Shown one piece after another: positions 4,767 through 26,857 of a stretch of 31,573 bases of DNA. Under the pieces are notes generated by a model that saw only the letters and a program-made list of their open reading frames with translations, did no database searches and was not told where the DNA came from. Both the position numbers and the translations under genes were made by a program. The stretch is taken from positions 1 through 31,573 of the forward strand of contig JACREP010000046.1 of the NCBI GenBank assembly GCA_016218185.1. Direction: 5' to 3'. The first letter of the stretch is position 1; every line of letters begins with the position of its first letter. The DNA comes from Candidatus Gottesmanbacteria bacterium. Lineage in GTDB: Bacteria; Patescibacteriota; Microgenomatia; UBA10105; UBA927.

Positions 4767-4829
4767 ACCTTTAAAGGTGAGACCTTGTTAATTACTGTAT
4801 TGAGGCTGACCTTTAAAGGTCTCACCTTG
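4767..4829. repeat. Two 21-bp nested-palindrome units (ACCTTTAAAGGT-NNN-ACCTTG), 42-bp period
   Basis: ACCTTTAAAGGTgagACCTTG at 4767-4787 and ACCTTTAAAGGTctcACCTTG at 4809-4829; 4774-4786 is the exact reverse complement of 4816-4828. Confidence 0.85.
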
Positions 4830-4837: not shown

Positions 4838-7800
4838 ATGAAAAAAATACTTTTACTTGGATCTGGAGCCCTGAAAATCGGCGAAGCCGGTGAGTTTGAT
4901 TATTCCGGAACACAGGCCATTAAAGCACTCAAGGAAGAAGGCCGCGACGTCATCCTGGTCAATCCGAACATTGCCACCATTCAAACGTCCGAAGGGTTAG
5001 CCGACCGTGTGTATTTTTTGCCGGTGACACCTGATTTTGTAGAAAGAGTAATTACCAAAGAGAGGCCGGACGCAATTCTCCTTTCATTCGGAGGGCAAAC
5101 GGCGCTCAATTGCGGCATAGGGCTCTATACGAAAGGAGTTTTGAAACGCAATAATGTGGAAATTTTAGGTACGCCGATGGCGACGATCATCGATACCGAA
5201 GACCGTGAACTGTTTGCCAAGCGGCTGCAGCGCATCGGCCTTGCGACCGCCAAAGGGGTGACGGTAAAAAGTGTCAAAGAGGGTGTAGCATATGCCGAAA
5301 CGTTCGGCTATCCGATTATGCTTCGCACGGGATTTGCCCTTGGTGGTACGGGAAGCGGGATCGCGCGAAGCAGGCGTGAACTTGAGGCAATTCTTAGCAA
5401 TGCATTTGCGGCGACGTCGCAAGTTATTTTGGAAGAATGTTTATACGGGTGGAAAGAAGTGGAATATGAGGTTATGCGGGATTGCAGGGATAACTGTATT
5501 ACGGTATGTAACATGGAAAATTTTGACCCTGTCGGCATCCATACCGGCGAATCGGTTGTCGTGGCGCCTTCGCAAACATTAAACGATGATGAATACTACC
5601 AATTGCGGCAGATATCCATCGATACAATTCGGGAACTGGGGATCGTCGGAGAATGCAATATCCAGTTTGCACTGCATCCCAAAACCGGGCAGTACCGTAT
5701 TATCGAAGTCAACGCGCGGCTTTCGCGGTCAAGTGCCCTTGCTTCCAAAGCAACAGGGTACCCGCTGGCGTATATTGCAGCAAAACTCGCACTCGGCAAG
5801 ACCCTTCCGGAACTTCGAAATAGCGTCACTGGGAGTACGAGTGCTTTTTTTGAACCGGCGCTTGACTATGTGGTAGTAAAAATTCCCCGTTGGGATCTGG
5901 AAAAATATGAAGGCGTAGATCCAACCATCGGTAGCGAGATGAAAAGCGTCGGCGAGGTGATGGCGATTGCCCGGACGTTTAAGGAAGCGGTACAGAAGGC
6001 GGTTCGTATGCTGGGACAGGGCTACGAGGGTGTTATTGACGAGGATGCGCTGCGGCAGAGCAGGATTATGTTGCGAAAGCGACTCGCCACGCCTGATGCC
6101 AAGCGGATGTTTGTCATTGGCGCGGCATTGGCCCGCGGAATTACGGTTGACGAAATAGCCAAGCTCACCGGTATTGACCCCTGGTATCTCTCTTCTTTGG
6201 AACGCATCGTGTTTACTTACCAAAAACTCAAGAAGTCAAAAATACTCCCGCGTGAGCTCCTTGCTGAAGCCAAACGACAGGGATTTTCGGATATTCAGAT
6301 CGCACATCTTCGATCAACGACGGAAGATTCTATTCGTTCACTTCGAAAAAAACTCGGCGTGAAGCCGTGCGTCAAGCGCATCGATACCATGGCGGGTGAG
6401 TTTCCGGCCAAAACGAACTATCTGTACATGACGTACGCGGCCGGTCAATCAGACCATCTGCCTACGTCCAAGGAAAAAAAGGTCATTGTGTTGGGGAGCG
6501 GCCCGTATGCTATCGGCACCTCAGTGGAGTTTGATTGGTGTGCCGTCAATACCGTGACAACCGTGAGGGATCAGGGCAAAAAGACCGTCATGGTCAATTG
6601 CAACCCGGAAACCGTATCAACGGACTATGATTACAGCGACTATCTTTATTTTGAGGAATTAAGCCTTGAGCGTGTTCTGGATATTTATGATTTGGAAAAG
6701 TCGCCGTTTATTCTCTCCGTCGGCGGTCAGATTCCCAATAACCTCGCGCCGAAGCTTGCGGCGTGTGGCATACCCATTCTTGGTTCCGATGCAAAAATTA
6801 TTGAACAGGCAGAAAACCGTCATATATTTAGTAAGCTTTTGGATACACTCGGAGTGGCGCAGCCGGCATGGGGGGAATCTCACTCTATACGTCAGTCGGT
6901 CCGTATGGCGCGTTCCATAGGATTTCCCATACTTTTACGGCCGTCATTCGTGCTTTCGGGTAAAGCCATGCTGGTTATAGAAAAAGAAGAGCTGTTAGTT
7001 TCGTATTTAAAGTCGCTTGATCTGGATATTGGCAAACATCCTCTCGTGATGACGAGATTTTTGCAGGGCGCCATGGAATGTGATATGGACGGGGTTGCAA
7101 AAGAAGGACGCATACTGATTTGGGCCATATCGGAGCATGTAGAACACGGGGGGGTCCACTCCGGTGACGCGACTATGGTATTGCCGCCGCATTCCTTGCC
7201 CGACAGCGTGCGGGAAAATATCGTGAAGAATGCAGGTGCAATTGTGGCGACATTGGGGGTTAACGGGCCGTTCAACATCCAATTTTTAGTTTCTGACGGC
7301 AAGCCGTACGTGATAGAATGCAATCTGCGCGCTTCCCGAAGTTTCCCGTTTGTCAGTAAAACGCTTCGACAAAATTTTATCCGGATCGCCACACAGGTCG
7401 CGTTGGGGAACGGCGTGACGGTACCGGTAAAAAAAACGAAGCCTTCGTACGTGTGTGTGAAAGTGCCTCAATTTTCCTTCAAGCGGCTGCGCGGCGCTGA
7501 TCCGGTGCTTCGTGTGGAAATGAGCTCAACCGGGGAAGTGGCTGCATTTGGGGTTGATGTGCATGAAGCATATCTGAAGGCGTTGCTTGCCACGGGTTTG
7601 CGTTTTCCGGATAAAAAGACTGTATTTTTGAGCCTTGGGGGAGGAGGCGGTAAACTATCGTTTCTCGCGGGCGCAGCGTGCCTTCGGCGTTTGGGTTTTA
7701 CGTTATTTGCCACACGGGGTACTTATGAATTTTTGAATGAACACAACATACCGTCCCGGTTAGTGGGAAAACTTCATGAGGGGATACATCCGAATTTCGT

Positions 7801-8044
7801 GGACCTCCTGAAGGATAAAACCGTTGGGTTTTCCGTGGTTTTGCCTGAACGCTTTACGGATAACACCAGGACAGAAGTGACCAAGGGGATAAGCGACGGC
7901 TATATTATGCGCCGGATGTCCATAGATATGGGAATTCCTATATTTACCAACGCACAATCCGCATACCTGTTCGTAGAATCCATGGAGCGTTACCAGATTT
8001 CGGATCTGGAAATAAAACACTGGTCGGAGTATAAAGGAGAATAG
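4838..8044 (+). CDS. carB: Carbamoyl-phosphate synthase large subunit
   Basis: GSGALKIGEAGEFDYSG, two ATP-grasp halves (GIHTGES, EVNARLSRSS; GVHSGDA, ECNLRASRS), C-terminal MGS-like domain; 1068 aa. Confidence 0.99.
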   Translation: MKKILLLGSGALKIGEAGEFDYSGTQAIKALKEEGRDVILVNPNIATIQTSEGLADRVYFLPVTPDFVERVITKERPDAILLSFGGQTALNCGIGLYTKGVLKRNNVEILGTPMATIIDTEDRELFAKRLQRIGLATAKGVTVKSVKEGVAYAETFGYPIMLRTGFALGGTGSGIARSRRELEAILSNAFAATSQVILEECLYGWKEVEYEVMRDCRDNCITVCNMENFDPVGIHTGESVVVAPSQTLNDDEYYQLRQISIDTIRELGIVGECNIQFALHPKTGQYRIIEVNARLSRSSALASKATGYPLAYIAAKLALGKTLPELRNSVTGSTSAFFEPALDYVVVKIPRWDLEKYEGVDPTIGSEMKSVGEVMAIARTFKEAVQKAVRMLGQGYEGVIDEDALRQSRIMLRKRLATPDAKRMFVIGAALARGITVDEIAKLTGIDPWYLSSLERIVFTYQKLKKSKILPRELLAEAKRQGFSDIQIAHLRSTTEDSIRSLRKKLGVKPCVKRIDTMAGEFPAKTNYLYMTYAAGQSDHLPTSKEKKVIVLGSGPYAIGTSVEFDWCAVNTVTTVRDQGKKTVMVNCNPETVSTDYDYSDYLYFEELSLERVLDIYDLEKSPFILSVGGQIPNNLAPKLAACGIPILGSDAKIIEQAENRHIFSKLLDTLGVAQPAWGESHSIRQSVRMARSIGFPILLRPSFVLSGKAMLVIEKEELLVSYLKSLDLDIGKHPLVMTRFLQGAMECDMDGVAKEGRILIWAISEHVEHGGVHSGDATMVLPPHSLPDSVRENIVKNAGAIVATLGVNGPFNIQFLVSDGKPYVIECNLRASRSFPFVSKTLRQNFIRIATQVALGNGVTVPVKKTKPSYVCVKVPQFSFKRLRGADPVLRVEMSSTGEVAAFGVDVHEAYLKALLATGLRFPDKKTVFLSLGGGGGKLSFLAGAACLRRLGFTLFATRGTYEFLNEHNIPSRLVGKLHEGIHPNFVDLLKDKTVGFSVVLPERFTDNTRTEVTKGISDGYIMRRMSIDMGIPIFTNAQSAYLFVESMERYQISDLEIKHWSEYKGE

Positions 8045-8066
8045 TACGACACAGTACTTAAACATA

Positions 8067-8099
8067 GACAAATACAGTTGCGACCGGAGTTGTATTTGT
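8067..8099. repeat. Palindrome ACAAAT-N20-ATTTGT, third copy of the PaaX-flanking element
   Basis: GACAAATACAGTTGCGACCGGAGTTGTATTTGT matches the reverse complement of the element at 15518-15563 at 26/33 positions without gaps; could also fold as a 12-bp RNA stem with G-U pairs. Confidence 0.75.
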
Positions 8100-8106
8100 A
8101 TAAGTT
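8078..8106 (+). promoter_or_regulatory. Putative internal promoter for pyrB and downstream genes
   Basis: TTGCGA (8078-8083), 17 bp, TAAGTT (8101-8106); overlaps the palindrome at 8067-8099. Confidence 0.4.
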
Positions 8107-8119
8107 TATGAACGATACC

Positions 8120-9046
8120 ATGTTTTTTCAACGAGACATTCTGACCAGTGATCAGTTTACCAAGGCCGAGGTTGGGCTTATTATTGAAAAGGCAAGAGTA
8201 ATGCGGAATTTGGTGGCAAGACAGGGAACCACAGATATTCTCAAGGGGAAGATTATGACAGCGCTTTTTTATGAGCCTTCAAGCCGCACGTTCGGGTCAT
8301 TCATCGCTGCAATGCAGCGGTTGGGAGGAGGGATTATTCCGCTCCAGGGAGTGGTGTATTCATCCGTTGCCAAAGGGGAAAGCTTGCCCGATACCGTGCG
8401 GACGTTTGCCAGCTTTTCGGATATCATTGTGCTTCGCCACCCGACCGTGGGAGCCAGCCATACGGCGGCAGATGCCACAGACGTGCCGGTGATCAATGCC
8501 GGTGACGGCCCGGGCGAGCACCCGACCCAGGCGCTTCTTGATTTTTTTACGATCATGGATCGATTCGGCAAGGTTGATGGCCTGACAATAACCTTAGTCG
8601 GTGACCTGAAAAACGGCAGAACCGTGCATTCGCTCCTCACTCTTTTGTCGTTATACCGACCCAAAAGGGTAAATTTGGTGTCCCCATCTGTTCTTCCCAT
8701 GCCAGCCGAGCGGCTGCAAAAAGCAAAACAAGCGAGGATTGCGATTTCCGAAACGGACAGACTGGAGGAAGTTCTGGCAACAACGGATGTTCTCTACGTC
8801 ACTCGCGTACAAAAGGAACGCTTTGCCGACCTTGATGTCTATGAGAGGGTAAAGCACGCGTATGTGATTACCCCCGAGACAATGAAACATCTTAATAAAA
8901 ACGCAATCCTCATGCACCCGTTCCCGCGTGTGGGAGAAATTGCCACAGAAGTGGACAGCGATCCGCGGGCAGTGTACCTGACCCGGCAGATCCCCAACGG
9001 CATGTACGTGCGCATGGCGTTGCTTTCACTTATTTTATGTCGCTGA
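8120..9046 (+). CDS. pyrB: Aspartate carbamoyltransferase catalytic subunit
   Basis: FYEPSSRT, SSVAKGES, RHP, NAGDGPGEHPTQALLD, GDLKNGRTVHSL, HPFPR, NGMYVRMALL. Start is ATG 8120 or ATG 8108 rather than TTG 8078. Confidence 0.97.
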   Translation: MFFQRDILTSDQFTKAEVGLIIEKARVMRNLVARQGTTDILKGKIMTALFYEPSSRTFGSFIAAMQRLGGGIIPLQGVVYSSVAKGESLPDTVRTFASFSDIIVLRHPTVGASHTAADATDVPVINAGDGPGEHPTQALLDFFTIMDRFGKVDGLTITLVGDLKNGRTVHSLLTLLSLYRPKRVNLVSPSVLPMPAERLQKAKQARIAISETDRLEEVLATTDVLYVTRVQKERFADLDVYERVKHAYVITPETMKHLNKNAILMHPFPRVGEIATEVDSDPRAVYLTRQIPNGMYVRMALLSLILCR

Positions 9047-14583: not shown

Positions 14584-14655
14584 ATATCGTCATATAAAAC
14601 TTCCTCAAAGTTATTTGTTAAGTAAAACCAAGTTTAGCGAATAAGAGTGGAAAAA

Positions 14656-14701
14656 ATCTACGACAAATTCATCAGCGGCCGCTGTCAAATTTGTAGTAGC
14701 T
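14656..14701. repeat. 46-bp palindromic element, copy at the 3' end of the PaaX-like gene (contains its stop codon)
   Basis: ATCTACGACAAAT-TCATCAGCGGCCGCTGTCAA-ATTTGTAGTAGCT; 39/46 identical to the reverse complement of 15518-15563. Confidence 0.9.
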
Positions 14702-15491
14702 GAAGCTTCGGAAGTATGAGTTGATATGCTTTGTCACCGTTCCACCACCGGGGAAGAAGCTCAAAAGGCAGTTGAGGGTCATCTTTGAGAATGGTGAGAA
14801 ATGCAATGAGCATCCAATGGTCGAGGTGTTCGGATCGTTTGGTTTCTTTGATCCATTCGGTATAACGATCGTTGAGTATGTCCAGCCGCCACACGCGAGC
14901 AACGAGGCTGCGGAGATCTTCTTCGCCGATGGACGCATCGCTTCCCATGTCAGATACAATGATGGTGCCGACTAAACGGTGTTCGTGAATAAATGTACGC
15001 AGGGTGTCAATAGGATTGTACGGCGTAATCCATACAGAGTATTGAAGCTTTGCGGCGCCGATAGTGCGAATGAAATCCCGAAGTGCATCGCGTTCCTTAT
15101 GCTGTTTCTCCGGTATATCGTACGTAATTATGTGCATACGGGCATCCCATACGCGCTTTTCGTCATAAACTGGGATAATTTTCGAAAGTCGGCGTCTGCC
15201 TTCCAGGGTAATTTCCGGAAGTGCATGGCGCCTGCGCACTGCTGGTGCAAGAAGTTTGCGGCGGCGCGCATGAGTGATGGCGCGCATGATCGTTTCGTAG
15301 TTCCATTGTGATAGAAATCGGTCAGCGGCAAGCTTTGCTCGGAACGCTACTGCATGGGGAGATTGAGGAAGTCCGAGTGTTGCCACATAAACTGCGATCC
15401 AAAGTGATAGATCGACAACCGTTGAAAATATTTGCGTACCCAGTGGATCTGTGGGAACGACCCACTGGGTTCCGGACGTTTTGGTTCCCAT
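14685..15491 (-). CDS. PaaX-family transcriptional regulator (wHTH part + Cas2-like ferredoxin-fold middle domain + PaaX_C)
   Basis: TIMRAITHARRRKLL...EITLEGRRRL (wHTH-like), WDARMHIITYDIPEKQ..ERDALR..I...GAAKLQYSVWITP, VWRLDILNDRY, DDPQLPFELLPRWWNG. Confidence 0.88.
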   Translation of the reverse strand: MGTKTSGTQWVVPTDPLGTQIFSTVVDLSLWIAVYVATLGLPQSPHAVAFRAKLAADRFLSQWNYETIMRAITHARRRKLLAPAVRRRHALPEITLEGRRRLSKIIPVYDEKRVWDARMHIITYDIPEKQHKERDALRDFIRTIGAAKLQYSVWITPYNPIDTLRTFIHEHRLVGTIIVSDMGSDASIGEEDLRSLVARVWRLDILNDRYTEWIKETKRSEHLDHWMLIAFLTILKDDPQLPFELLPRWWNGDKAYQLILPKLQLLQI

Positions 15492-15499
15492 ATGCGTTT

Positions 15500-15528
15500 A
15501 CTATAACAAAAATGTGAATCTACGACAA
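15500..15528 (-). promoter_or_regulatory. Promoter of the PaaX-like gene
   Basis: Minus strand TTGTCG, 17 bp, TG-n-TATAGT (extended -10); ATG 8 nt after the -10. The -35 lies inside the palindrome arm. Confidence 0.7.
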
Positions 15529-15563
15529 ATAGAACAACGGCCGCAGATGAATTTGTCGTAGAT
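15518..15563. repeat. 46-bp palindromic element, upstream copy (perfect 13-bp arms), candidate operator
   Basis: ATCTACGACAAAT-N20-ATTTGTCGTAGAT; overlaps the paaX-like -35 and ends 14 bp before the divergent purF -35. Confidence 0.9.
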
Positions 15564-15577
15564 ATAAAAGTGATGTA

Positions 15578-15607
15578 TTGACAGCGGTTTGCATTGTAGG
15601 GTATGCT
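15578..15607 (+). promoter_or_regulatory. Promoter of the pur operon
   Basis: TTGACA (15578-15583), 18 bp, TATGCT (15602-15607). Confidence 0.65.
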
Positions 15608-15618
15608 CCAGAAGGAAT

Positions 15619-15660
15619 ACGGTAATGCCCTTTGTTGCGATGAGGGAGTGCCGTTTTTTT
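15619..15660 (+). terminator. Terminator-like hairpin plus T7 in the purF leader
   Basis: ACGGTA (15619-15624) pairs with TGCCGT (15649-15654), inner CCCT/AGGG stem; T run 15654-15660. Confidence 0.55.
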
Positions 15661-15765
15661 ATTGCCTCTTTTTAAAACCAAGGTGTATTGGTTTGCGGTT
15701 AAAGCCAGAATCGTTACCTTTTAGTATTGATTGTAATATCTGGTTTACGCAGTTTATTTGGCAAT

Positions 15766-17325
15766 ATGATTGCTCCGACCGCCCTTGAAAAAAAACCTCT
15801 CTGGGACCACTGCGGAATCGTTGCCGCGTTTGCTCCAAGCAACATTGCGTTTTTTGAAAAAGGACTTGGCGGGCTTACTGTCTTGCAGACGCGCGGGTAT
15901 GACGGCGCGGGATTTTGTGCATTGGGGACGAACGGATTTCTCGTACAACACAAAGGGATTGGCATGGTGCGGGAAGTATTTACACCGGAAGTGGTTGCCG
16001 AATTTCAGGCGTTTCGTGCCCATACATGGATCTATCAGGTGCGTTATGGGACCAACGGCGGATTTACCCAAGACAATGTGCAGCCGCTGGTGACAAAACA
16101 TGAGGCAAGCGGGGATATCTTTATGGTCGTGCACAACGGGCAGTTTGCTCAAAACAGAGAGGCAAAACCGGTTAACGAGAGTGATACGTTGTTGTTTGCC
16201 CGGCGACTGGCCCAAAGTGCAGGAGGCAGTTGGGACGAACGGATTGTGGAACAGCTTTCCTCCATAAACGGCGCGTGGAGTTTAGTGATTGGAACCCGCG
16301 ATGCGCTGTATGTCGCCCGTGATCCGTGGGGGTTCCGCCCGCTCGTATACGGGCACCTGTGGGATCCGTCGCTACGGGAGTTTATTTGGGCTGCGGCGTC
16401 CGAAACAAGCGCATTGGATGCCATGGGGGTGACGGATCATTTTGAACTCCTGCCGGGGACTGTAGCGAAAGTCACATCTTCCGGATTGGAAATTTTGGAT
16501 AAAGTGAAGCACCGGCAACGGGCGCTTTGTATTTTTGAAAATATTTATCTTCATCATGGGGCAGGACGAGCCCATCTGCCGCGAACCAGTCCGCGTGCCA
16601 TCAAACGGTCCCCCACGGTAGATGACGTGCGGAGACGAAGCGGCAAAATTTTGGCGCGCGAGGCGCCGCTAACCAGAAGCGATGTGGATATGGTCATTGG
16701 CGTACCGGGTACGGGGATTGAGGGCGGTATGGCGTTTGCCAGGACACTGGATCTGCCGTACTTTCAGGCAATCACAGATAAAGAGACAAGCCTCACCGAG
16801 CAGAGAACTTTCATGACCGCCCGCATCGACAGCATTTATCAAAAAGTCCTGGATCACTTTAGGTTTGACGGGCAGGCTCTCAAAGGCCGGCGCGTCGTAC
16901 TGGTGGACGATTCCGTCGTCCGGGGGAATATCACCCGCGGCCTGGTGGGTCTCTTGAAGGAGCAGTATCACGTGTTGGCTGTTCATCTTCGTATTGTGAG
17001 CCCGCCGATTGACAAGGCATGCCATTTAGGCGTGAACACGAGGACTGCGGATGAGCTTATCGCTGCTCGTTTAAACGGCGATGTGGAAAAAATCCGTCAG
17101 TCGTTGGGAGCTGATTCTCTGGCCTATTTAAGCGGTCAGGGATTGAAAGAAGCCCTTACCGGCGACCCCCGTGCTTCTGGGTTTTGCATGGGGTGCATGG
17201 CCGGACACTTGCCGCCGTTTGATCCCTACGGAATGCCATATCGAAAGACCGGGCGCCCCGTTGTTTTCAAAAAACAAAACCTGCCGAAACTTTCCTATGA
17301 CCAACCGCAGAATTTTGTTTACTGA
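15766..17325 (+). CDS. purF: Amidophosphoribosyltransferase, propeptide and Fe-S type
   Basis: 15-aa propeptide then Cys (DH|CGIV), QTRG, VRYGT, HNG, ARDPWGFRPL, VDDSVVRG, Fe-S Cys pattern (CIFE, CHLG, CMGC). ATG 15766 preferred over TTG 15727. Confidence 0.96.
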   Translation: MIAPTALEKKPLWDHCGIVAAFAPSNIAFFEKGLGGLTVLQTRGYDGAGFCALGTNGFLVQHKGIGMVREVFTPEVVAEFQAFRAHTWIYQVRYGTNGGFTQDNVQPLVTKHEASGDIFMVVHNGQFAQNREAKPVNESDTLLFARRLAQSAGGSWDERIVEQLSSINGAWSLVIGTRDALYVARDPWGFRPLVYGHLWDPSLREFIWAAASETSALDAMGVTDHFELLPGTVAKVTSSGLEILDKVKHRQRALCIFENIYLHHGAGRAHLPRTSPRAIKRSPTVDDVRRRSGKILAREAPLTRSDVDMVIGVPGTGIEGGMAFARTLDLPYFQAITDKETSLTEQRTFMTARIDSIYQKVLDHFRFDGQALKGRRVVLVDDSVVRGNITRGLVGLLKEQYHVLAVHLRIVSPPIDKACHLGVNTRTADELIAARLNGDVEKIRQSLGADSLAYLSGQGLKEALTGDPRASGFCMGCMAGHLPPFDPYGMPYRKTGRPVVFKKQNLPKLSYDQPQNFVY

Positions 17326-17388
17326 CGGTACACACGTGTATACGTGTAACGGGACGTTCCGAGGCTGCCGCCCCAGGATAGGAGGAAT

Positions 17389-18276
17389 ATGAACATATGT
17401 ATCAGTTCCACATTCGTTGGCCGTGATGGATACGGCCTGGTAACGCGCATTCTTGACGCCGTTGCAGAAGGTAAACTTCCGGGAATTACCGTTTCTGCGG
17501 TTATTTCCACACGGGAGTCGGGAGATGATAAAACATCCGATCAACTTCTCGCCAGATTACATGAAGCATATCCGGATGTACCTATCATCGCATATTCCGC
17601 CAAGCAACACGGAAGAATTAAACGAAAGCCCAGTGAAAAAGAAAAAGACCTGTATGATCTGGCAATTCTTGAACGTCTTGGAGCAGCAGATCTCAATATC
17701 ATGGTCGGAGACATGATTATTAAAGGACCGGAGTGGTGTCGGAAGCTTCCCAGTCTCAACCTCCACCCGGATTTGCCGCTTTCTTTGGGAGGGACAGAGG
17801 GGATGTATTGGGAAGTGATTGGCAAGTGGGTGCGGGACGGCCGAGGGGAAATAGGCGGTATGATGCATTTGGCTATACCAACGCTTGATGCCGGCACGCC
17901 GATTGCATATTTCCGCCTGCCGGCGCGGGGCACCGTCAATGGGGTTGATTTAGCACCGCTCTGGGATACGTTGCCGAAAGAACCCGATAAGCGGGAGGCT
18001 CTGATACAGCAACAAGTTGCGCTCAAAGATAAACCGACCCACCGGTTGTTTGTTGAGCTTCGGCGGGCAGAGGCAGCGTTTGAACAAAGACTGGTGTTGA
18101 GTACGATTACGATGTTTGCCCAAGATGAACTCGGTATACAGGAAGGAAGAGTGGTTGATAAAAATGGACAACCGCTTGAGAACGGTTTAGATATAACAGA
18201 GTGGGTTGTAGATGGAGCTGCGGTTTGGCCGGGAGGAGAAAGTAGCGGGAAATCTCGCAGTCCAGAAACTCAATGA
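17389..18276 (+). CDS. Divergent long formyltransferase, probable GAR transformylase (PurN-like)
   Basis: NLHP motif and GGMMHLAIPTLDAGTPI (catalytic Asn/His/Asp pattern of the formyltransferase family); sits between purF and purD; about 100 aa longer than standard PurN. Confidence 0.75.
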   Translation: MNICISSTFVGRDGYGLVTRILDAVAEGKLPGITVSAVISTRESGDDKTSDQLLARLHEAYPDVPIIAYSAKQHGRIKRKPSEKEKDLYDLAILERLGAADLNIMVGDMIIKGPEWCRKLPSLNLHPDLPLSLGGTEGMYWEVIGKWVRDGRGEIGGMMHLAIPTLDAGTPIAYFRLPARGTVNGVDLAPLWDTLPKEPDKREALIQQQVALKDKPTHRLFVELRRAEAAFEQRLVLSTITMFAQDELGIQEGRVVDKNGQPLENGLDITEWVVDGAAVWPGGESSGKSRSPETQ

Positions 18277-19619
18277 AACCGTACGATGTCATCGGGTCCG
18301 GAACGCGCACGAAGAGTCTTGATGCCGTTCTTATGCTAGAGAAAAAGAAGCGTGGTAAAAAACAAACCGTTTTAGTCATCGGATCAGGCGGTCGGGAACA
18401 TGCCATCGGCTGGAAACTTGCCCGGTCTTTGCAGGTTGGTAAGCTCTATTTCGCACCGGGTAACCCCGGTACCGGAGAAATCGGGGAAAACGTGCCCATA
18501 AAAGCAGACGATATTGAGGGATTAGTTGCTTTTGCAAAAACAAAAAACATAGACATTACCGTTGTTGGCACTGAGGCATCTCTGGTTGCCGGCATCGTGG
18601 ACCGGTTTGCTAAAGACGGTTTTCGTATTTTTGGCCCGAACAAACAAGCGGCCCGTCTGGAAACAAGCAAAGCATGGGCAGTGGAATTCATGGCGCGGCA
18701 TGGAGTCCCGCACCCAATTTCGGAAATCTTTGACCATCCGGGCGAGGCGCTTGCGTACGCGGAAAAGCTCGGCGGGCGGTGTGTGGTGAAAGCAGACGGA
18801 CTTTGTCAGGGCAAAGGGGTATTTGTCTGCAATTGGCAGGAAGAAGCTCGCAGGGCAGTGACCATGCTTATGGTGGACAAACTTTTCGGATCGGCCGGAG
18901 ATCGCGTGGTGATTCAGGAAAAATTAGAAGGCAAAGAAGTTTCCGTGATGGCGTTTTGCGACGGGTCACGTGCAGTGCCGTTGGTTGCGGTACAAGACTA
19001 CAAGCGCGCATATGACGGCGATCATGGCCCAAACACCGGCAGCATGGGTTCTGCGGCCCCGGCGAAACACGTGGGCCCGACTCTTTTGAAGAAAATCCAC
19101 CGACTGCTCACCCTTGCGGTAAAGGGCATGGGAGATGAAGGAGCAGCCTACCGCGGTATCCTGTATGCGGGTTTGATGATTGTGGACGGCAAGCCGTACA
19201 TTTTGGAATTTAACTGCCGTTTCGGTGACCCGGAGACGCAGGTACAACTTCCTCTTCTTGAAACCGATCTGTTGCCGATTCTGGAGGCGTGTATCGATGG
19301 CCGGCTGACGGCAGAGATGGTGCGCTGGAAGAAGGCTTCGGCAGTCTGCGTGGTATTGGCTTCCGAAGGGTATCCGGGTATCTACAAAACCGGAGAGATT
19401 GTCCGCGGACTTAGGCAACCAGCCGGTAATCACGGATTTATGGTATTTCACGCAGGAACATCACGCTTTGGCACCGTTGTTCAATCAGCCGGAGGCAGAG
19501 TCCTGGGCGTGACCGCTACGGCACCGACCGCTCGCGCCGCGAGAAAAAAAGCGTACGCTGCAATCGGAAATCCCCTGTCCTTTGAAGGCATGCAGTACAG
19601 GAAGGATATCGGTAAATAA
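18273..19619 (+). CDS. purD: Phosphoribosylamine-glycine ligase
   Basis: LVIGSGGREHA, APGNPG, KADGLCQGKGV, QDYKRAYDGDHGPNTGSMG, EFNCRFGDPETQ, HAGT, GGRVLGV, YRKDIG. Alternative start ATG 18333. Confidence 0.97.
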   Translation: MKPYDVIGSGTRTKSLDAVLMLEKKKRGKKQTVLVIGSGGREHAIGWKLARSLQVGKLYFAPGNPGTGEIGENVPIKADDIEGLVAFAKTKNIDITVVGTEASLVAGIVDRFAKDGFRIFGPNKQAARLETSKAWAVEFMARHGVPHPISEIFDHPGEALAYAEKLGGRCVVKADGLCQGKGVFVCNWQEEARRAVTMLMVDKLFGSAGDRVVIQEKLEGKEVSVMAFCDGSRAVPLVAVQDYKRAYDGDHGPNTGSMGSAAPAKHVGPTLLKKIHRLLTLAVKGMGDEGAAYRGILYAGLMIVDGKPYILEFNCRFGDPETQVQLPLLETDLLPILEACIDGRLTAEMVRWKKASAVCVVLASEGYPGIYKTGEIVRGLRQPAGNHGFMVFHAGTSRFGTVVQSAGGRVLGVTATAPTARAARKKAYAAIGNPLSFEGMQYRKDIGK

Positions 19620-19621
19620 CT

Positions 19622-22501
19622 ATGGAGACGGTGACACGGATTGAAGTAGTCACGACCGTTTGTGATTCGCGTGCATTTGTTTTGTACAAGCGGCTTGTTT
19701 CCGACGGATTTCGTCTCGCGCGTGTCCGGATCACGGATGTATATACGATCGATAAAAAATTTGCAGCCGGTGAACTTGCAAAAATCACTTCTCTTCTTGC
19801 TCACCCGCTGACGCAACGGGCAAGCCATACTATGCCGCTATCACCGGCAACGTTTTCCTGGGCTATCGAAATCGGGTATCTTCCGGGAGTCACTGACAAC
19901 GTTGCCGCAACGGTCCGCGAAATGATAGAAGATTTTACCGGAAAGCCGTTTGGGCATCATGAAGGAGTCTATACGTCGCGCGTCATGTTTTTTTCCGGAT
20001 CATTGACAGAATCCGAAGTGACGCGGATCGCTGAGCGTCTTTACAATCCGTTAATTGAACGCGCGAGCGTTAAAAGTTTTGCCGCGTTTCAAAAAGATAA
20101 CGGTATGGGGAAAAACATTCCGCGTGTCGTATTGTCCGCACCGCCTGCTGCTGATGAAGTGAGTCTGTCCGTAAGCGATAAGGAGTTGGCCTCTATCGGA
20201 ACACTGGGTGTTGCAAACCGGAATGGCACGCGTCGCGGGCCGCTGGCACTTGATATCTCTTCCATGAAAACGATCCGGGCGTACTTTCGCAAGCGGAAAA
20301 GAAACCCGACCGATGTAGAGCTTGAGTCTCTGGCACAGACGTGGAGCGAGCACTGCAAGCATACTATTTTTAATAGCCCTATTGATGATATCAAAGAAGG
20401 ACTGTTCCGGCGATACATAAAAGGGGCAACAGAACGCATCAGAAAGAAAAAAGGAAAGAGGGATTTTTGTGTCAGCGTGTTTTCTGATAATTCAGGAGCC
20501 ATCGTGTTTGATAAGCAGTTTCTCGTAACGCACAAAGTGGAAACGCACAACAGCCCGTCGGCGCTTGACCCGTTTGGCGGGGCCTTAACCGGCATCGTGG
20601 GAGTCAACCGCGATGCCATAGGCTTTGGGTTGGGGGCTAAGCCGGTGATCAACACGTACGGATTTTGCCTTGCCGATCCCCGCGACAAGACGATACTTTT
20701 TCGGGATCTGAACAAAACACAACCGATGCTTTCTGAAGCGAGGATTATGGAAGGGGTTGTTGCGGGGGTAAACAGCGGCGGCAACTGTTCCGGCATACCC
20801 ACGCCGCAGGGATTTTTGTATTTTGACCGGCGTTTTCGCGGAAAACCCCTGGTGTTTGTGGGAACTGTTGGGCTAATCCCCAAAATCGTCAGCGGCAGGA
20901 GGTCATACGAAAAAAAAGCCCGCCCGGGTGATTACATCGTTATGGTAGGCGGCAGGGTCGGGCTTGACGGCATCCACGGCGCCACGTTTTCTTCACAAGC
21001 CTTAACCAGCGGCAGTCCGGCAACAGCAGTACAGATCGGGGACCCCATAACACAGAAAAAGTTCAGTGACGCGATCGTGGGTGAAGCCCGAGACATGGGG
21101 CTTTTCCACAGTATTACCGACAATGGCGCGGGGGGGTTATCCTGTTCGGTTGCGGAAATGGCCAAAGAGTCCGGCGGATGTTTGGTGGAGCTTGAGAAGG
21201 TGCCGCTTAAGTATCCCGGACTTGCAGCGTGGCAAATCTGGATTTCCGAATCGCAGGAACGCATGACCCTGGCGGTCCCGAAGCATAAATGGCAGGCGTT
21301 GTCGCGTCTATTGAAGAGGCACGGAGTTGTGGCCACGGTGATCGGCACATTTACCCGTTCCGGACGATGCGTGGTAACTTACCGGGGAACAACAGTCATG
21401 GATGTGGATATAAAATTTTTGCATGACGGATTGCCAGCGCGCCAGATGCGCACGAAACCCATGCCGGCGGTCCGGAGGTCACCAAAACTCCCTCACGCGT
21501 CCGATCTCACACATTTATTTCTCTCCATGCTTTCCCGGCCGAATATCTCTAGTTTTTCATTTATTTCCCGTCAGTATGACCACGAGGTGCAGGGCAGTTC
21601 GGTTCTCAAGCCCCTGCAGGGAAGAGGAAAAGTCAATGCCGATGCGACGGTGACGCGACCGGTTTTATCATCCTTGCGCGGCATTGTGTTGTCCCAGGGG
21701 CTGTACCCGTCGTACAGCGATATTGACCCATATCGCATGGCGGCGTGTAGTTTAGATACCGCAGTACGAAACATTGTGGCCGCAGGAGCTGACCCTGACC
21801 GTATTGCGCTTTTGGACAATTTCTGCTGGTGCTCATCGCAGGACCCGGGACGACTTTGGCAGCTCAAACAGGCCGCCAAGGCTTGCTATGACTACGCGGT
21901 TGCCTACGGCACGCCGTTTATTTCCGGAAAAGACAGTATGTTCAATGATTTTACTGGGTTTGATGCACAGGGTAAGCCGGTTGCTATTTCCATTCCGCCG
22001 ACTCTTCTTATTTCCGCCATCGGTGTTGTTGCTGATAGTACAAAGGTCGTGTCCCTCGATGCGAAATTTCCCGGGGATCTGGTGTATCTTTTGGGTGAAA
22101 CGTACGATGAGGTAGGTGGGATTAATGCAAAAACAAACAGGAAACTTTATTTTGCCCTCAGCAGTGCAATACAACGCGGACTTGTGGCTTCCAGCCAAAG
22201 CGTGCACCGCGGCGGCGTAGCTGTTGCCATCGCCAAAACAGCACTGGCTGGGCTGTACGGAGTTGACGTGACGATTGACCGAGCGCCGTTTTCCGAAAGC
22301 CAGGGGCGTATTGTGGTGACCGTGGCGCCGCAAAACGCGAGGGCATTTGAAAACGTTATGACTGGTAATGCGTATGCCTGCATCGGCTCCGTGACAGAGA
22401 GGAAACGAATTCTTATGAAGGATCATGGAGGCAGAGTAATTGTTGATAGTTCACTTCATTATGCCCAGAGGTCATATCTGTCAACATTTAAGGAATATTG
22501 A
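19622..22501 (+). CDS. purL: FGAM synthase PurL with N-terminal fused PurS-like domains
   Basis: N-terminal ~150 aa with PGVTDN and NPLIE; WSEHCKH, KVETHNSPS, GGRVGLDGIHGAT, QIGDP, DNGAGG, SESQERM, QYDHEV, ISGKDSM; 959 aa. Confidence 0.95.
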   Translation: METVTRIEVVTTVCDSRAFVLYKRLVSDGFRLARVRITDVYTIDKKFAAGELAKITSLLAHPLTQRASHTMPLSPATFSWAIEIGYLPGVTDNVAATVREMIEDFTGKPFGHHEGVYTSRVMFFSGSLTESEVTRIAERLYNPLIERASVKSFAAFQKDNGMGKNIPRVVLSAPPAADEVSLSVSDKELASIGTLGVANRNGTRRGPLALDISSMKTIRAYFRKRKRNPTDVELESLAQTWSEHCKHTIFNSPIDDIKEGLFRRYIKGATERIRKKKGKRDFCVSVFSDNSGAIVFDKQFLVTHKVETHNSPSALDPFGGALTGIVGVNRDAIGFGLGAKPVINTYGFCLADPRDKTILFRDLNKTQPMLSEARIMEGVVAGVNSGGNCSGIPTPQGFLYFDRRFRGKPLVFVGTVGLIPKIVSGRRSYEKKARPGDYIVMVGGRVGLDGIHGATFSSQALTSGSPATAVQIGDPITQKKFSDAIVGEARDMGLFHSITDNGAGGLSCSVAEMAKESGGCLVELEKVPLKYPGLAAWQIWISESQERMTLAVPKHKWQALSRLLKRHGVVATVIGTFTRSGRCVVTYRGTTVMDVDIKFLHDGLPARQMRTKPMPAVRRSPKLPHASDLTHLFLSMLSRPNISSFSFISRQYDHEVQGSSVLKPLQGRGKVNADATVTRPVLSSLRGIVLSQGLYPSYSDIDPYRMAACSLDTAVRNIVAAGADPDRIALLDNFCWCSSQDPGRLWQLKQAAKACYDYAVAYGTPFISGKDSMFNDFTGFDAQGKPVAISIPPTLLISAIGVVADSTKVVSLDAKFPGDLVYLLGETYDEVGGINAKTNRKLYFALSSAIQRGLVASSQSVHRGGVAVAIAKTALAGLYGVDVTIDRAPFSESQGRIVVTVAPQNARAFENVMTGNAYACIGSVTERKRILMKDHGGRVIVDSSLHYAQRSYLSTFKEY

Positions 22502-22534
22502 CATATTAACATGTTAACATATTAATATATTCAT
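22495..22534. repeat. Five imperfect 8-bp tandem repeats (consensus ATATTAAC) between purL and purQ
   Basis: ATATTGAC ATATTAAC ATGTTAAC ATATTAAT ATATTCAT; includes TTGACA and palindromes TTAACATGTTAA and ATGTTAACAT. Confidence 0.7.
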
Positions 22535-22537
22535 TTT

Positions 22538-23338
22538 ATGAAAAAACCCAAAGCGATGATATTTTCCGGCTACGGGCTTAACTGTGAAGGGGAAACCAAA
22601 TATGCTTTTGAGCTTGCCGGCGCAGGCGCCGACATTGTTCACATCAATGACCTTGTGGATGGACGCAAAAAACTTTCGAGCTATCAAATTCTGGCATTTC
22701 CCGGAGGGTTTGCCTACGGTGACGACACGGGTGCGGGGAATGCGTATGCAGGGAAACTGAAGAATCATCTTTGGGAGGAAATAGTGAGTTTCGTCCCGGG
22801 TAATCATTTAATAATCGGCATTTGCAACGGGTGTCAGATTCTTGTAAATCTCGGGCTTTTCCCCGTCAGCAGCAAGCAGTACGAGGAGAGGGAAGCGGCA
22901 CTGCTTCAAAACGACTCGGGCCGTTATACGGTACGCTGGACGGACGTGAAAAGCGAAAGTTCCTCGCCCTGGCTTGCGGGCATCGATACCATGATGCTTC
23001 CGATTGCTCACGGTGAGGGAAAGTTTTATGCAACAGACAGAGTGCTTGCGACAATGAGAGAGAAAAAAATGATTGCTCTTCGGTATATTCACGGTGAGAT
23101 ATGCGCGTATCAGGGGCTTCCTGCCAATCCCACGGGGACGCTTGATGATATTGCAGCAATTACTGACCAAACCGGAAAGATTTTAGGTATCATGCCGCAC
23201 CCGGAGCGGGCCATATTCTTTACGCAGTTACCCCATTGGCCGTACCTTAAGGAGCAATATGTACGACGTAACATGCCGTTGCCTAAAGAGGGACCGGGGC
23301 TCAAAATATTTCAAAATGCCGTCGCCTATTTTGCGTAA
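22538..23338 (+). CDS. purQ: FGAM synthase glutaminase subunit
   Basis: GLNCEGET, PGGFAYGD, GICNGCQIL, NDSGRY, PIAHGEG, MPHPER triad. Confidence 0.97.
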   Translation: MKKPKAMIFSGYGLNCEGETKYAFELAGAGADIVHINDLVDGRKKLSSYQILAFPGGFAYGDDTGAGNAYAGKLKNHLWEEIVSFVPGNHLIIGICNGCQILVNLGLFPVSSKQYEEREAALLQNDSGRYTVRWTDVKSESSSPWLAGIDTMMLPIAHGEGKFYATDRVLATMREKKMIALRYIHGEICAYQGLPANPTGTLDDIAAITDQTGKILGIMPHPERAIFFTQLPHWPYLKEQYVRRNMPLPKEGPGLKIFQNAVAYFA

Positions 23339-23341
23339 ATC

Positions 23342-24352
23342 ATGAAACATCAACACTTTACGATCGCCACTCTGGGCAGCCACAGCGCTTTGCAAATACT
23401 CAAAGGAGCTAAGGATGAAGGGTTTAAAACGCTTCTGGTGGTGACGAAACATACGGAACCTTTTTATCGGCGGTTCACTTTTATTGATGACTTCATTGTC
23501 CTTCGTGCATTGGGTGATGTTATTTCTATAGAAAAAAGTTTACGAAAACGAAACGTCATCCTCATTCCGCATGGATCCTTTGTGGCGTATTTGGGCAAAG
23601 TTGGCAATAAACGGTTAACCGTACCCTATTACGGCAATAAAAAAGTCTTGGATTGGGAGGCAGACCGTACGCTCCAACGGCGTTGGCTAACCCGAGCAGG
23701 AATACATCAACCGAAACAATATAGACCCGATGAATCGATCCGCTTTCCCGTCATTGTGAAATCTTTTGGCGCTGCAGGCGGGTCGGGATATTTTATTGCA
23801 GCAAACAAGGCAGGATTAGACAAAAAAATTAAAGCAATGAAGCAGCATAAATACGTTATCCAACAATATGTCGTAGGGGTCACGTGCTACCTGCATTATT
23901 TTTATTCTCCTCTCACAAAATCGGTGGAGCTGATGAGCATTGACCGGCGGTATGAAACCAACGCGGACGCGCTCGGAAGAATTCCCCTTACCTATCAAAC
24001 CCCCTCTCTGGACCCAAGTTTCGTCGTTGTGGGCAACTCCCCACTCGTACTGCGCGAATCGCTTTTGCCGGAAGTACTCGCTATGGCTGAGCGCATTGTC
24101 TCTGCATCCCAAAAACTTATTGACCCGCGCGGTCTATTTGGCCCTTTTTGTCTGGAAACGATCATTACGCCGGATCAAAAATTTTATGCGATGGAGATAT
24201 CATGCAGGATTGTCGCCGGTACAAACTTATTTATTGAGGGTTCGCCCTACACGTGGTTAACGTATAATGAGCCGATGAGTACCGGCAGAAGAATTGCGCG
24301 GGAAATTAAAACCGCAATCAACAAAAACAAATTGGCTCTGCTTACCGGTTAA
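23342..24352 (+). CDS. purP: FAICAR synthetase PurP (archaeal-type ATP-grasp AICAR formyltransferase), paralog 1
   Basis: IATLGSHSALQILKGAKDEGF, PHGSFVAY, YFYSPL, DRRYETNAD, GNSPLVLRESLLP, GPFCLE, EISCRIVAGTN, MSTGRRIAREI. Confidence 0.9.
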   Translation: MKHQHFTIATLGSHSALQILKGAKDEGFKTLLVVTKHTEPFYRRFTFIDDFIVLRALGDVISIEKSLRKRNVILIPHGSFVAYLGKVGNKRLTVPYYGNKKVLDWEADRTLQRRWLTRAGIHQPKQYRPDESIRFPVIVKSFGAAGGSGYFIAANKAGLDKKIKAMKQHKYVIQQYVVGVTCYLHYFYSPLTKSVELMSIDRRYETNADALGRIPLTYQTPSLDPSFVVVGNSPLVLRESLLPEVLAMAERIVSASQKLIDPRGLFGPFCLETIITPDQKFYAMEISCRIVAGTNLFIEGSPYTWLTYNEPMSTGRRIAREIKTAINKNKLALLTG

Positions 24353-24355
24353 TAT

Positions 24356-25444
24356 ATGAAAATACCGACGATTGCCGTTTTGGGAAGCCACAGCGCCCTG
24401 GATGTTTGCCGCGGCGCCAAAGACGAGCGACTTGAGACGCTTGTAATTGCAGAAATCGGACGTGAGCAAACGTATGCTTCCTATTACAAATCCCGGCCAG
24501 GCATCGGATGTGTGGATGAATGTATGGTACTTGATCATTTTTCCGATATTCTTTCGCCGGATTTCCAAAAGAAGCTGCGGGCAAAAAACGTCATTTTCAT
24601 TCCCCACCGCTCGTTTGAAGCGTATCTTAATTTTGACTATCGCGCGATTGAAAACGATTTTCACGTTCCCATGTTTGGAAATAAGTATCTTCTGAAAATA
24701 GAAGAACGCCAAAGCCGGCCGAATCAGTATGATCTTTTAGAGGAAGCCAATATCCGATATCCCAAACAGTATAGTTCTCCTAAGGCGATCGACCGGTTGT
24801 GCATGGTAAAAGTATCTGAACGGACGCGTGTTTTTGAACGAGCATTTTTTCTCGTTTCCGGTTATCAGGACTATGTGAAAAAAACCAAAGAAATGATGGG
24901 TAACCAAAAAATTACCGGACAAGCCCTTGCCGCATCAGTCATTGAGGAATTTGTGGTTGGGACGCCGGTCAATTTCAATTTCTTTTACTCTCCTATTAAT
25001 AAACGTCTTGAACTTATGGGAACAGACACCAGAAGGCAGACAAATCTTGACGGAGTGCTTCGGGTTCCTGCGACATATCAGGAGGCCGTACTGAAATCTC
25101 TGCCGCTTACGTTTGAGGAATCAGGGCATATAGCAGTTACTGTTCTTGAGTCAATGCTGGAGAAAGCATTCAGTCTGGGTGAAGCATTTGTCGCAGCGAC
25201 GAAACGGTTATATCCACCGGGCATCATCGGACCGTTTGCCCTTCAGTCAATTATTACGTCAGGGCCTCCGAAAAAGGATATTGTCGTCATCGACGTATCT
25301 CCCCGCATGCCGGGGTCTCCCGGAATTTCTGCGACTCCTTACGGTGCATATCTGTATGGGAAATCAATGTCGGTAGGCAGACGGGTTGCAAAAGAAATCC
25401 GTGAAGCGTATACAAAGCATGCTATGGAAAGGATCATTACCTAG
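24356..25444 (+). CDS. PurP-like ATP-grasp protein, paralog 2 (divergent)
   Basis: IAVLGSHSALDVCRGAKDE, PHRSFEAY, FYSPI, DTRRQTNLDG, GHIAVTVLESMLE, GPFALQ, DVSPRMPGSPG, MSVGRRVAKEI. Confidence 0.85.
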   Translation: MKIPTIAVLGSHSALDVCRGAKDERLETLVIAEIGREQTYASYYKSRPGIGCVDECMVLDHFSDILSPDFQKKLRAKNVIFIPHRSFEAYLNFDYRAIENDFHVPMFGNKYLLKIEERQSRPNQYDLLEEANIRYPKQYSSPKAIDRLCMVKVSERTRVFERAFFLVSGYQDYVKKTKEMMGNQKITGQALAASVIEEFVVGTPVNFNFFYSPINKRLELMGTDTRRQTNLDGVLRVPATYQEAVLKSLPLTFEESGHIAVTVLESMLEKAFSLGEAFVAATKRLYPPGIIGPFALQSIITSGPPKKDIVVIDVSPRMPGSPGISATPYGAYLYGKSMSVGRRVAKEIREAYTKHAMERIIT

Positions 25445-25447
25445 TGT

Positions 25448-26857
25448 ATGCAAATACCTGATTTTTCCAATTACGTTTCTGCGCTTTCTTGGCGGTATGG
25501 GAGTGCCCCGATGCGGGGTATTTTCAGTGAACAAAATAAGTACAAAATCTGGCGCAGCATTTGGGTGGCACTGGCTGAAGCACAGTATAAAGCGGGATTA
25601 GTAAGTCTTGCGGAACTGAATGATCTTAGAAAACATAAAGATGACATGGATATAGAAAAAATCCTTGAGATAGAGAAAGAAACGAACCATGACCTGGTGG
25701 CAGCTATCCGCGAGTTTGCCCAAAAGGCCAAAATTGGCGGCGGCAAAATACACTTTGGAGCAACCAGTATGGATATCGTGGATAATGCCGACGCAATTCG
25801 CATACGCCAAGCACTGGCCTTGACTCAAAAAAATCTCGTTACACTCCTTGCATTGTTTGCAAGGCAAATTCACGCGTATGCAAATATTCCTTGTATGGGA
25901 TACACGCATCTGCAACCTGCGGAACCGATAACCGTGGGATACCGGCTCGCGTTCTATGCCCAGGATTTGCTCACCGATTTCACATTTCTGCAGTTTGTCC
26001 AATCGGTCTTCCAGGGTAAGGGACTGAAGGGAGCTGTCGGTACAAGGGCAAGTTATCAGGTAATCCTTAAAGGGACCTGCATGTCTGCCTCTGAATTTGA
26101 TGACCGCATCACCAAGGAACTCGGAATATCGGGAGCTCTTATTACCTCTCAAGTGTACCCGCGCAAGTACGACTATCTTGTGGTATCCCTTCTGGCAAGC
26201 ATTGCCTCCTCCGTAGCCAAATTTGCAGGGGACCTTAGAATTCTTCAGTCAGCAGGCATCGGCGAATGGAGTGAACCGTTCGGGAAAAAACAGGTAGGAT
26301 CTTCTGCTATGCCGTTTAAAAGAAATCCCATTAACTGCGAAAAAATCTGTTCGCTTGCGCGCTATGTGGCGGCCATCCCCTCAGTAGCACTGGAAAATGC
26401 GACATTGAGCTACCTGGAACGAACACTGGATGATTCTGCAAATAAACGGATCGTCGTTGCTGAGGGTTTTTTAGCGTTGGATGAAATACTCACTACTGCC
26501 CAAAAGATCGTTGATGGTTTGGTCATCAATACCCATCGCATCGCCCACAACGTCAACCAATATGCTCCATTTGCAGCAACGGAAACGCTTCTTATCATGC
26601 TTGTCAAACACGGTGCAGACCGCCAAAAAATGCATGAACTTCTCCGCACCATTTCCATGAAATCATCGGAGGCAATTCAGGCGGAAAAACCAAATCCCAT
26701 GAATCAACTGATCAAAGAGAATCCGACCATCCGTAAGTATTTAAAAGCAGCCGAAATTCATGAGTCGCTTGACGTTGCAAACCATGTCGGCGATGCACCG
26801 GAGCGCGCATTGAAACTGGTAAAAGAAATTAAAAAAACAATGAAGAATTATGGATAA
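25448..26857 (+). CDS. purB: Adenylosuccinate lyase
   Basis: HFGATSMD, GYTHLQPAEP, KGAVGT, signature GSSAMPFKRNP, LERTLDDSANKR. Confidence 0.97.
   Translation: MQIPDFSNYVSALSWRYGSAPMRGIFSEQNKYKIWRSIWVALAEAQYKAGLVSLAELNDLRKHKDDMDIEKILEIEKETNHDLVAAIREFAQKAKIGGGKIHFGATSMDIVDNADAIRIRQALALTQKNLVTLLALFARQIHAYANIPCMGYTHLQPAEPITVGYRLAFYAQDLLTDFTFLQFVQSVFQGKGLKGAVGTRASYQVILKGTCMSASEFDDRITKELGISGALITSQVYPRKYDYLVVSLLASIASSVAKFAGDLRILQSAGIGEWSEPFGKKQVGSSAMPFKRNPINCEKICSLARYVAAIPSVALENATLSYLERTLDDSANKRIVVAEGFLALDEILTTAQKIVDGLVINTHRIAHNVNQYAPFAATETLLIMLVKHGADRQKMHELLRTISMKSSEAIQAEKPNPMNQLIKENPTIRKYLKAAEIHESLDVANHVGDAPERALKLVKEIKKTMKNYG

Follow-up and report, generated by a model that had tools for sequence, protein, structure and literature searches.

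A palindrome in the carB/pyrB junction of a Candidatus Gottesmanbacteria genome as a probable dispersed copy of the element bracketing a PaaX/Cas2-like gene

The spacer between carB and pyrB in a genome of Candidatus Gottesmanbacteria (CPR) carries a palindrome that is probably a solitary copy of the element cognate to a PaaX-like protein, dispersed by copy and paste and probably bound by a dimer of that protein, with any effect on pyrB being incidental. The window, i.e., the whole 31.6-kb stretch of DNA analyzed, belongs to an assembly of 699 kb in 127 contigs (82.6% complete), designated G000. We compared it with a genome of the same genus (G001) and with related genomes (among them G004 and G019); C numbers denote contigs of a genome, and L numbers denote the loci or contigs examined in G000 or its relatives. 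The window is arranged as atpG-atpD-atpC, a CBS-domain gene, carA, carB, pyrB, pyrC, pyrD, a SLOG-family gene, pyrF, pyrE, and upp, followed by the PaaX-like gene on the minus strand and then by purF and the purine cluster. A search of public reads located this DNA in groundwater metagenomes, only in DNA assemblies from one groundwater study and in no RNA runs. Among those assemblies, no variant without the pyrB element was found, and one contig spans it intact.

The palindrome before pyrB and its repeat family

The palindrome (positions 8054 to 8113) lies between carB (4838 to 8044, plus strand, with Pfam CPSase domains) and the aspartate carbamoyltransferase gene pyrB (8108 to 9046, plus strand, with Pfam OTCace_N and OTCace), occupying almost the entire spacer and taking in the ATG at 8108. 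Its extended arms (8054-8076 and 8091-8113) are 83% complementary and contain ACAAAT (8068-8073) and ATTTGT (8094-8099) on either side of the core CGACCG (8081-8086), making it longer than an earlier note on this DNA had described. That note had also reported three copies with the geometry ACAAAT-N20-ATTTGT and a common core, which we could reproduce: the pattern ACAAAT-N(18-22)-ATTTGT matches the window exactly three times (8068-8099, 14663-14694, and 15525-15556), always around a central CG(A/G)CCG, for a chance expectation of 0.01, and three matches were reached in none of 100 dinucleotide-preserving shuffles. The ungapped identity given in that note was recovered as well: 8067-8099 agrees with the copy upstream of the PaaX-like gene (15525) at 26/33 positions when that copy is reverse-complemented, and at 24/33 in direct orientation.

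As the earlier note had suggested, we scanned the genome with a weight matrix. This matrix, built from the genome's own seven copies and with three shuffled genomes as background, retrieved seven strong copies (40 to 53 bits) and a weak one in the 699 kb; the pyrB copy reached 52.9 bits, while the best scores in the shuffled genomes were 8 to 12.6 bits. The family, designated F1, has the consensus CTACGACAAAT-N7-CGRYCG-N7-ATTTGTCGTAG over ca. 44 to 60 bp. Besides the three copies in the window, its members are located at C4:723, C11:1120, C46:102, and C71:2210, and all seven are singlets. Restriction-site avoidance as the cause of the CGRYCG core was discarded, as the hexamer is not depleted in the genome (946 observed versus ca. 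670 expected).

As RNA, the pyrB element forms a hairpin (-17.6 kcal/mol, z -3.5) whose end lies 2 nt before the ATG at 8108. No T-run follows it, and therefore it is not an intrinsic terminator; a consensus scan of positions 7900 to 8300 called no terminator and no promoter at TTGCGA-17-TAAGTT, the hexamers for which an internal pyrB promoter had been proposed. These hexamers do exist, but only 7 of their 12 positions agree with the consensus, and they recur with identical spacing in the F1 copy inside gatB, which argues that they are intrinsic to the repeat rather than evolved for pyrB. When the whole window was scanned at Rfam gathering thresholds, no family matched.

A PaaX/Cas2-like protein and its bracketing palindromes

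The other two F1 copies in the window bracket the PaaX-like gene (14685 to 15491, minus strand), 6.5 kb downstream of the pyrB copy. The upstream one (15518 to 15563, core CGGCCG at 15538-15543) has perfect 13-nt arms, ATCTACGACAAAT and ATTTGTCGTAGAT, and ends 27 nt before the ATG of the gene and 15 nt before the TTGACA on the purF side. The downstream one (14656 to 14700, core CGGCCG at 14676-14681) is 44 nt long, is 86% complementary to the upstream copy, and extends over the TGA stop (14685-14687) and the final codons (LLQI) of the gene.

This arrangement is not particular to one gene. G000 encodes four PaaX-like paralogs, and each has its own palindrome of ca. 40 to 46 bp both upstream and at the 3' end, over the stop codon; accordingly, the three window sites can be regarded as one element cognate to the PaaX-like gene, as the earlier note had supposed. 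The palindromes of the other three paralogs, designated F2, F3, and F4, keep the geometry and the 6-bp core while their outer arms differ: AATATTGTC...CGACCG...ACAATATT at the paralog in C74, GTAGTCAAT...CGACCG...ATTGACTAC at the one in C69 (F3), and TTATTTATAA...CTACAG...TTATAAATAA at the one in C118. We then tested 25 cassettes from G000 and related genomes for an element shared by their upstream and downstream sides, using 23 genes of the window as controls. Such an element scored 12 to 45 in 23 of the cassettes, against 7 to 11 in the controls, and in the two low-scoring cassettes both palindrome copies were present according to the weight matrix. Aligned by their cores, all cassettes follow the scheme arm(10)-N10-core(6)-N10-arm(10), with a conserved AAT/ATT adjoining the variable outer arms.

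Within the F1 subclade the layout is rigid. The upstream palindrome ends 26 to 29 nt before the ATG (also at L065, L096, L097, and L098), and the stop codon falls ca. 15 nt inside the downstream palindrome, whose arm therefore encodes the C-terminal "QI*". The number of PaaX-like cassettes per relative ranges from 0 to 11. In the complete 1-Mb genome G019, the palindrome has only two copies, both flanking the cassette. Some copies in the relatives are perfect palindromes over 32 to 42 bp, which would suit an RNA or single-stranded DNA hairpin equally well as recognition of the duplex.

The protein itself (268 aa) consists of a putative N-terminal winged-helix region, a Cas2-like PaaX_M domain, and PaaX_C. 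PaaX is the phenylacetyl-CoA-responsive repressor of E. coli and Pseudomonas (PDB 8a39 and 3l09; Pfam families PaaX, PaaX_M, and PaaX_C). The central domain matched PaaX_M (PF20803) with an E value of 8e-14 (51.9 bits, cutoff 24), and PaaX_C (PF08223) was found with 4e-5 (24.4 bits, cutoff 22), only over residues 228 to 259, while a profile alignment to 8a39 extended to residue 265 of PaaX. Pfam gave no match to the N-terminal PaaX winged helix-turn-helix (PF07848), yet the profile aligned the recognition helix and wing to residues 57 to 90 of 8a39, and the AlphaFold2 (AF2) model has three helices in this region, with a pLDDT of 32 to 63 that makes the N-terminal third its low-confidence part. 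The model was computed from a 43-sequence alignment (mean pLDDT 73) and replaced an earlier one from 27 close sequences (pLDDT 61), which was discarded. Profile searches matched 8a39 (E. coli PaaX) and Rv0674, and a Foldseek search with the model returned the same two at the top, 8a39 first (E value 2.4e-6, probability 1.00, TM 0.50), with Cas2 structures as the next-best fold matches after PaaX. The PaaX equivalog model TIGR02277 scored far below its cutoff (61.3 versus 264.55 bits). The protein is thus a distant relative with the PaaX fold and not a PaaX equivalog. No PaaA or PaaC was matched in the 82.6%-complete genome, and the neighbors of the gene are upp and purF, in agreement with the previous remark that no paa genes are nearby.

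The central domain also passes the NCBI cas2 model TIGR01573 (25.8 bits, cutoff 24.5, residues 119 to 161). Its motif VTYDIPE aligns to the beta-1 strand of Cas2 (hhhYD[IV]), and the aspartate, a metal-binding residue of Cas2, is invariant in the 43 sequences, while the E. coli PaaX position aligned to it reads LSEGLD. Unlike CRISPR Cas2, this domain has a putative winged helix on one side and PaaX_C on the other, and an association with CRISPR was rejected, as no Cas1 was found in the 82.6%-complete genome and no CRISPR array in the window. Some homologs are annotated as Cas2 in public records, where the organism names given are Candidatus Gottesmanbacteria or Patescibacteria.

Because all four paralogs and 23 of 25 cassettes are bracketed by their own version of the palindrome, the PaaX-like protein most likely binds it, a conclusion that we draw from the pairing and the geometry. 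The E. coli PaaX site, TGATTC-N27-GAATCA (PMC9493321), likewise consists of short inverted arms with a long spacer; the earlier note had drawn this parallel, which is one of geometry only, and such binding is the mode expected for the PaaX fold. By analogy, a dimer could sit on the element with its winged helices on the outer arms, and binding at its own gene, where the upstream site overlaps the promoter region, would be expected to result in autorepression. There are also differences. The F1 spacer is 20 nt long with the conserved CGRYCG core, against N27 in E. coli; the second site of the cassette covers the gene's own stop codon; and the family has multiplied into paralogs, each with a palindrome of its own.

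Insertion at carB/pyrB and copies elsewhere in the genome

The genome G001 has the same order from atpD to upp (atpD-atpC-CBS-carA-carB-pyrB-pyrC-pyrD-pyrF-pyrE-upp), with 73 to 94% protein identity (84% for pyrB), and provides a version of the junction lacking the palindrome. There, it reads carB-TAA-TGT-ATG-pyrB, with the carB stop and the pyrB ATG 4 nt apart, and the pyrB start aligns with the window ATG at 8120, while the ATG at 8108 is within the element. In most family members this junction measures 0 to 16 nt, and the few longer ones hold unrelated hairpins; the palindrome was absent from G001, and ten further relatives examined lacked it at pyrB as well. Since G001 and most relatives have tight junctions, the ca. 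60-bp element is the derived state, and, judged from these alignments, the pyrB copy is a recent, lineage-specific insertion.

The adjacent carA/carB junction tells a similar story with another kind of repeat. Positions 4769 to 4829 hold a REP doublet, AAGGTGAGACCTT-N29-AAGGTCTCACCTT, in place of which G001 has an ATGA stop/start overlap. The doublet family, with spacers of N(7-29), occupies 11 loci (in the window and in contigs C32, C37, C38, C51, C58, C72, and C122), and two of the doublets flank a Y1_Tnp (IS200/RAYT-type) gene on C38. By comparison with G001, the operon junctions of G000 are apparently under colonization by palindromic repeats of two kinds. In one alternative explanation, the pyrB element acts at the RNA level (mRNA stability, processing, or translation start) or is passive and was spread by Y1 transposases instead of the PaaX-like protein. 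The stable hairpin just before the start codon speaks for it, as do the four Y1_Tnp genes of the genome together with an active-looking doublet family that has entered the neighboring junction, and the perfect palindromes of some relatives. Nevertheless, the Y1 genes are flanked by another repeat or by none detected, and none is associated with F1 to F4; the strict pairing of gene and palindrome, with arms specific to each paralog, points to the PaaX-like protein as the partner; and the absence of a T-run speaks against termination. We judge this explanation to be decidedly improbable.

Other parts of the region also differ between the two genomes. The SLOG-family gene between pyrD and pyrF is missing in G001, as are the PaaX-like cassette and the entire purine cluster; there, the interval from upp to pyrG measures 568 bp (G001:C2:37517-38085), compared with ca. 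15 kb in the window (14584-29546). On the purF side of the window, a promoter (TTGACA at 15578) and the first ca. 90 nt of the leader (together 15578 to 15660, plus strand) are conserved. Both the promoter and this part of the leader, GGAATACGGTAATGCCC...GATGAGGGAGTGCCG, are kept in G001 (L064:3860-4085), directly after upp; that copy precedes a small DeoR-like HTH gene and not purF, and no Rfam family matches it.

The four F1 copies outside the window are solos (copies away from a cassette), like that of pyrB. The one in C71 is inserted in frame inside gatB, in a loop that is hypervariable across the lineage, which weakens its polarity as an insertion. In C4 (717-760, L078), the solo takes up the whole spacer that separates an alpha/beta-hydrolase gene from the gene of a secreted staphylococcal-type nuclease, and the ATTTGT of the solo lies 9 nt before the nuclease ATG, a distance about equal to that at the pyrB ATG at 8108 (8 to 9 nt); when an orthologous empty site was sought for this copy, the best match in a relative was only 26% identical. 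The solo in C46 is located ca. 500 nt upstream of a Wzy_C/TPR membrane-protein gene, and its spacer matches that of the pyrB copy at 11 of 14 positions. An inner motif, GTTGCG, is present in four of the five solos and missing from the gene-flanking copies. Due to this shared spacer and motif, descent of the solos from each other by copying appears more plausible than convergence on a binding consensus.

The solo in C11 (1114-1157) falls within the 3' part of a Zn-ribbon membrane-protein ORF, beside a YdjM gene (YdjM/YkuD), and is syntenic with a complete F1-type cassette in a relative (L096:377-1283) whose protein is 71% identical. This suggests either loss of a cassette that left a solo behind or movement of a cassette between palindrome-marked sites. 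By extension, the pyrB copy could be a scar of the solo-LTR type, that is, a palindrome-gene-palindrome cassette at carB/pyrB could have been deleted by recombination with one palindrome remaining. Apart from the case in C11, where solo and cassette occupy the same syntenic position at the 3' side of YdjM, the wide variation in presence and number of cassettes among relatives fits such a history. However, a 0.9-kb cassette would disrupt a translationally coupled operon junction, and no relative examined has one at carB/pyrB. Moreover, insertion of a whole cassette cannot have produced the copies that lie in frame in recX and in the essential gatB, and the GTTGCG motif marks the solos as a subtype that differs from the flanking copies of today. 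This origin is the least probable of those considered.

The palindromes of the other paralogs have also given rise to solos, 0 to 3 in each of F2 to F4, so that the range for all families is 0 to 5. The only F3 solo (C73:2500-2537, L071) is a 16-aa in-frame insertion, relative to G001, in the recX linker that joins three-helix domains two and three. Those of F4 occupy junctions next to genes for glycosyltransferases, SDR, and membrane proteins; one of them (C59:1609-1648, L072) sits exactly between an ORF of 180 aa whose sole domain is the N-terminal one of GT4 and a full-length gene for a GT4 glycosyltransferase. In G001, a near-perfect 32-bp F1-like palindrome, GCAAATCCTACTGCGGCCGCAGTAGGATTTGT, was detected in a PTPS-related/YfhO membrane-protein ORF (L030, G001:C1:21376-21407). 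It looks like an orphan copy, since the closest PaaX-like gene of that genome is 57% identical and has different arms.

Returning to copy-and-paste dispersal of the cognate palindrome, sister copies have entered other junctions between genes as well as, with the reading frame kept, tolerant loops of gatB and recX. At pyrB, either the bound protein, acting as a roadblock, or the mRNA hairpin before the start codon may modulate expression from pyrB to upp, and we read such an effect as a by-product of repeat dispersal and not as part of a conserved nucleotide regulon.

Nucleotide regulation and comparison with known systems

The earlier note had explained the sites differently, as operators of a repurposed, ligand-sensing PaaX repressor that, from its positions before pyrB and between paaX and purF, would coregulate pyrimidine and purine synthesis. 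There are several points in favor. Three of the seven F1 sites lie within the pyr-pur supercluster, a fourth precedes the nuclease gene by 9 nt, and this nuclease could feed salvage; the geometry resembles that of PaaX operators, and the low copy number (0 to 5 solos per family) would also fit an ordinary small regulon. In addition, four genomes have the orthologous cassette placed so that it converges with upp on one side and diverges from a nucleotide gene on the other; the PaaX-like proteins of these four cassettes form one supported subclade. The divergent partner is purF in the window; at both L065 and L066 it is an adenine-PRTase-like gene, and at L097 an IMPDH-domain gene with pyrG-rplS after it. 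Taken together, two of the five solos (at pyrB and the nuclease gene) and the conserved placement of the cassette, with upp on one side and a purine gene on the other, could be signs of genuine regulation related to nucleotides.

A conserved pyr and pur regulon is, nonetheless, not supported by the distribution of the sites. The pyrB site is missing in G001 and the other pyrB loci checked, and on the contigs with an orthologous cassette, including one that spans pyrF-pyrE-upp, the two flanking sites are the only ones. The distance from the upstream palindrome to the divergent gene varies from 117 to ca. 400 nt, while that to the cassette's own ATG is fixed. Further copies lie in gatB, in the Zn-ribbon membrane-protein ORF, and near the Wzy/TPR gene, and the ACAAAT-type sites of G004 are located by aminotransferase, glycosyltransferase, and membrane-protein genes. 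The candidate pyrB promoter is poor and shared with the gatB copy. G001 keeps the purF-type promoter and leader with neither the cassette nor the purine cluster, and in a sister subclade the cassette is found by YdjM, where G000 has only a solo. Near 19 other PaaX-like homolog loci in the relatives (tblastn), no nucleotide genes were present. A weak link to nucleotide metabolism remains in the position of the cassette beside upp and a purine gene in the four genomes, but it does not extend to a conserved site at pyrB. We therefore regard coregulation as unlikely, and the dispersed repeat, which the earlier note had listed as its alternative, fits the copies in gatB and at unrelated junctions better.

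REP/REPIN elements and their RAYT genes (PMC3337134, PMC3116915, PMC5581495) offer a close parallel: there, too, copies of a dedicated palindromic repeat border a single-copy gene, every paralog has a repeat family to itself, further copies are dispersed, mostly between genes, and inheritance looks vertical and long-term. Unlike RAYT, which is defined by its HUH/Y1 transposase, the partner here has PaaX_M and PaaX_C domains, and the F1 copies are few singlets in contrast to the many inverted doublets of REP. G000 has, separately, a classical Y1 transposase with its own REP doublet family. The in-frame copies in tolerant loops of gatB (F1) and recX (F3) resemble MITEs that have entered genes in frame, among them the Rickettsia palindromic elements (RPEs; PMC10969869), although RPEs are ca. 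100 to 150 bp long and present in tens of copies, compared with seven copies of ca. 44 to 60 bp for F1, and the F1-type palindromes are tied to a specific DNA-binding gene. A literature search on PaaX combined with Cas2-like, CPR, or palindromes found no description of this gene-palindrome arrangement. New features are a full-length (PaaX_C-bearing) member of the family within a nucleotide supercluster and the co-occurrence of a classical REP/Y1 system in the neighboring junction, as well as, from the comparison with G001, what can be called a dated insertion in a coupled operon junction, for which G001 supplies the "empty site" within the genus.

The parallel with RAYT raises the possibility, to which we would give only a low likelihood, that the PaaX/Cas2-like protein goes beyond repression and is a dedicated trans-acting partner that copies, moves, or protects its palindromes, the copies at pyrB, in gatB, and at the nuclease gene being products of its activity. 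If so, a winged helix joined to a Cas2 fold with the retained metal-binding aspartate would be doing a RAYT-like job, and copy and paste, not point mutation, would be the source of new binding sites and hence of new regulatory links.

CPR bacteria (Patescibacteria) encode few recognizable regulators, and their gene control is largely unknown. Here, a PaaX/Cas2-like family has multiplied in CPR genomes with its own palindromes at both ends of each gene and strays in operon junctions and essential genes. As a lesson for annotation, palindromes beside metabolic genes should not be taken as evidence of a pathway-specific regulon unless their conservation is checked. If the protein binds the copies, regulatory sites in these genomes would spread by insertion, and the car-pyr operons of G000 and G001 would constitute a natural before-and-after pair for the effect of such an insertion. 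If it also moves them, the repeat and its protein would form a partnership comparable to REP/RAYT, but with a protein of unrelated fold.
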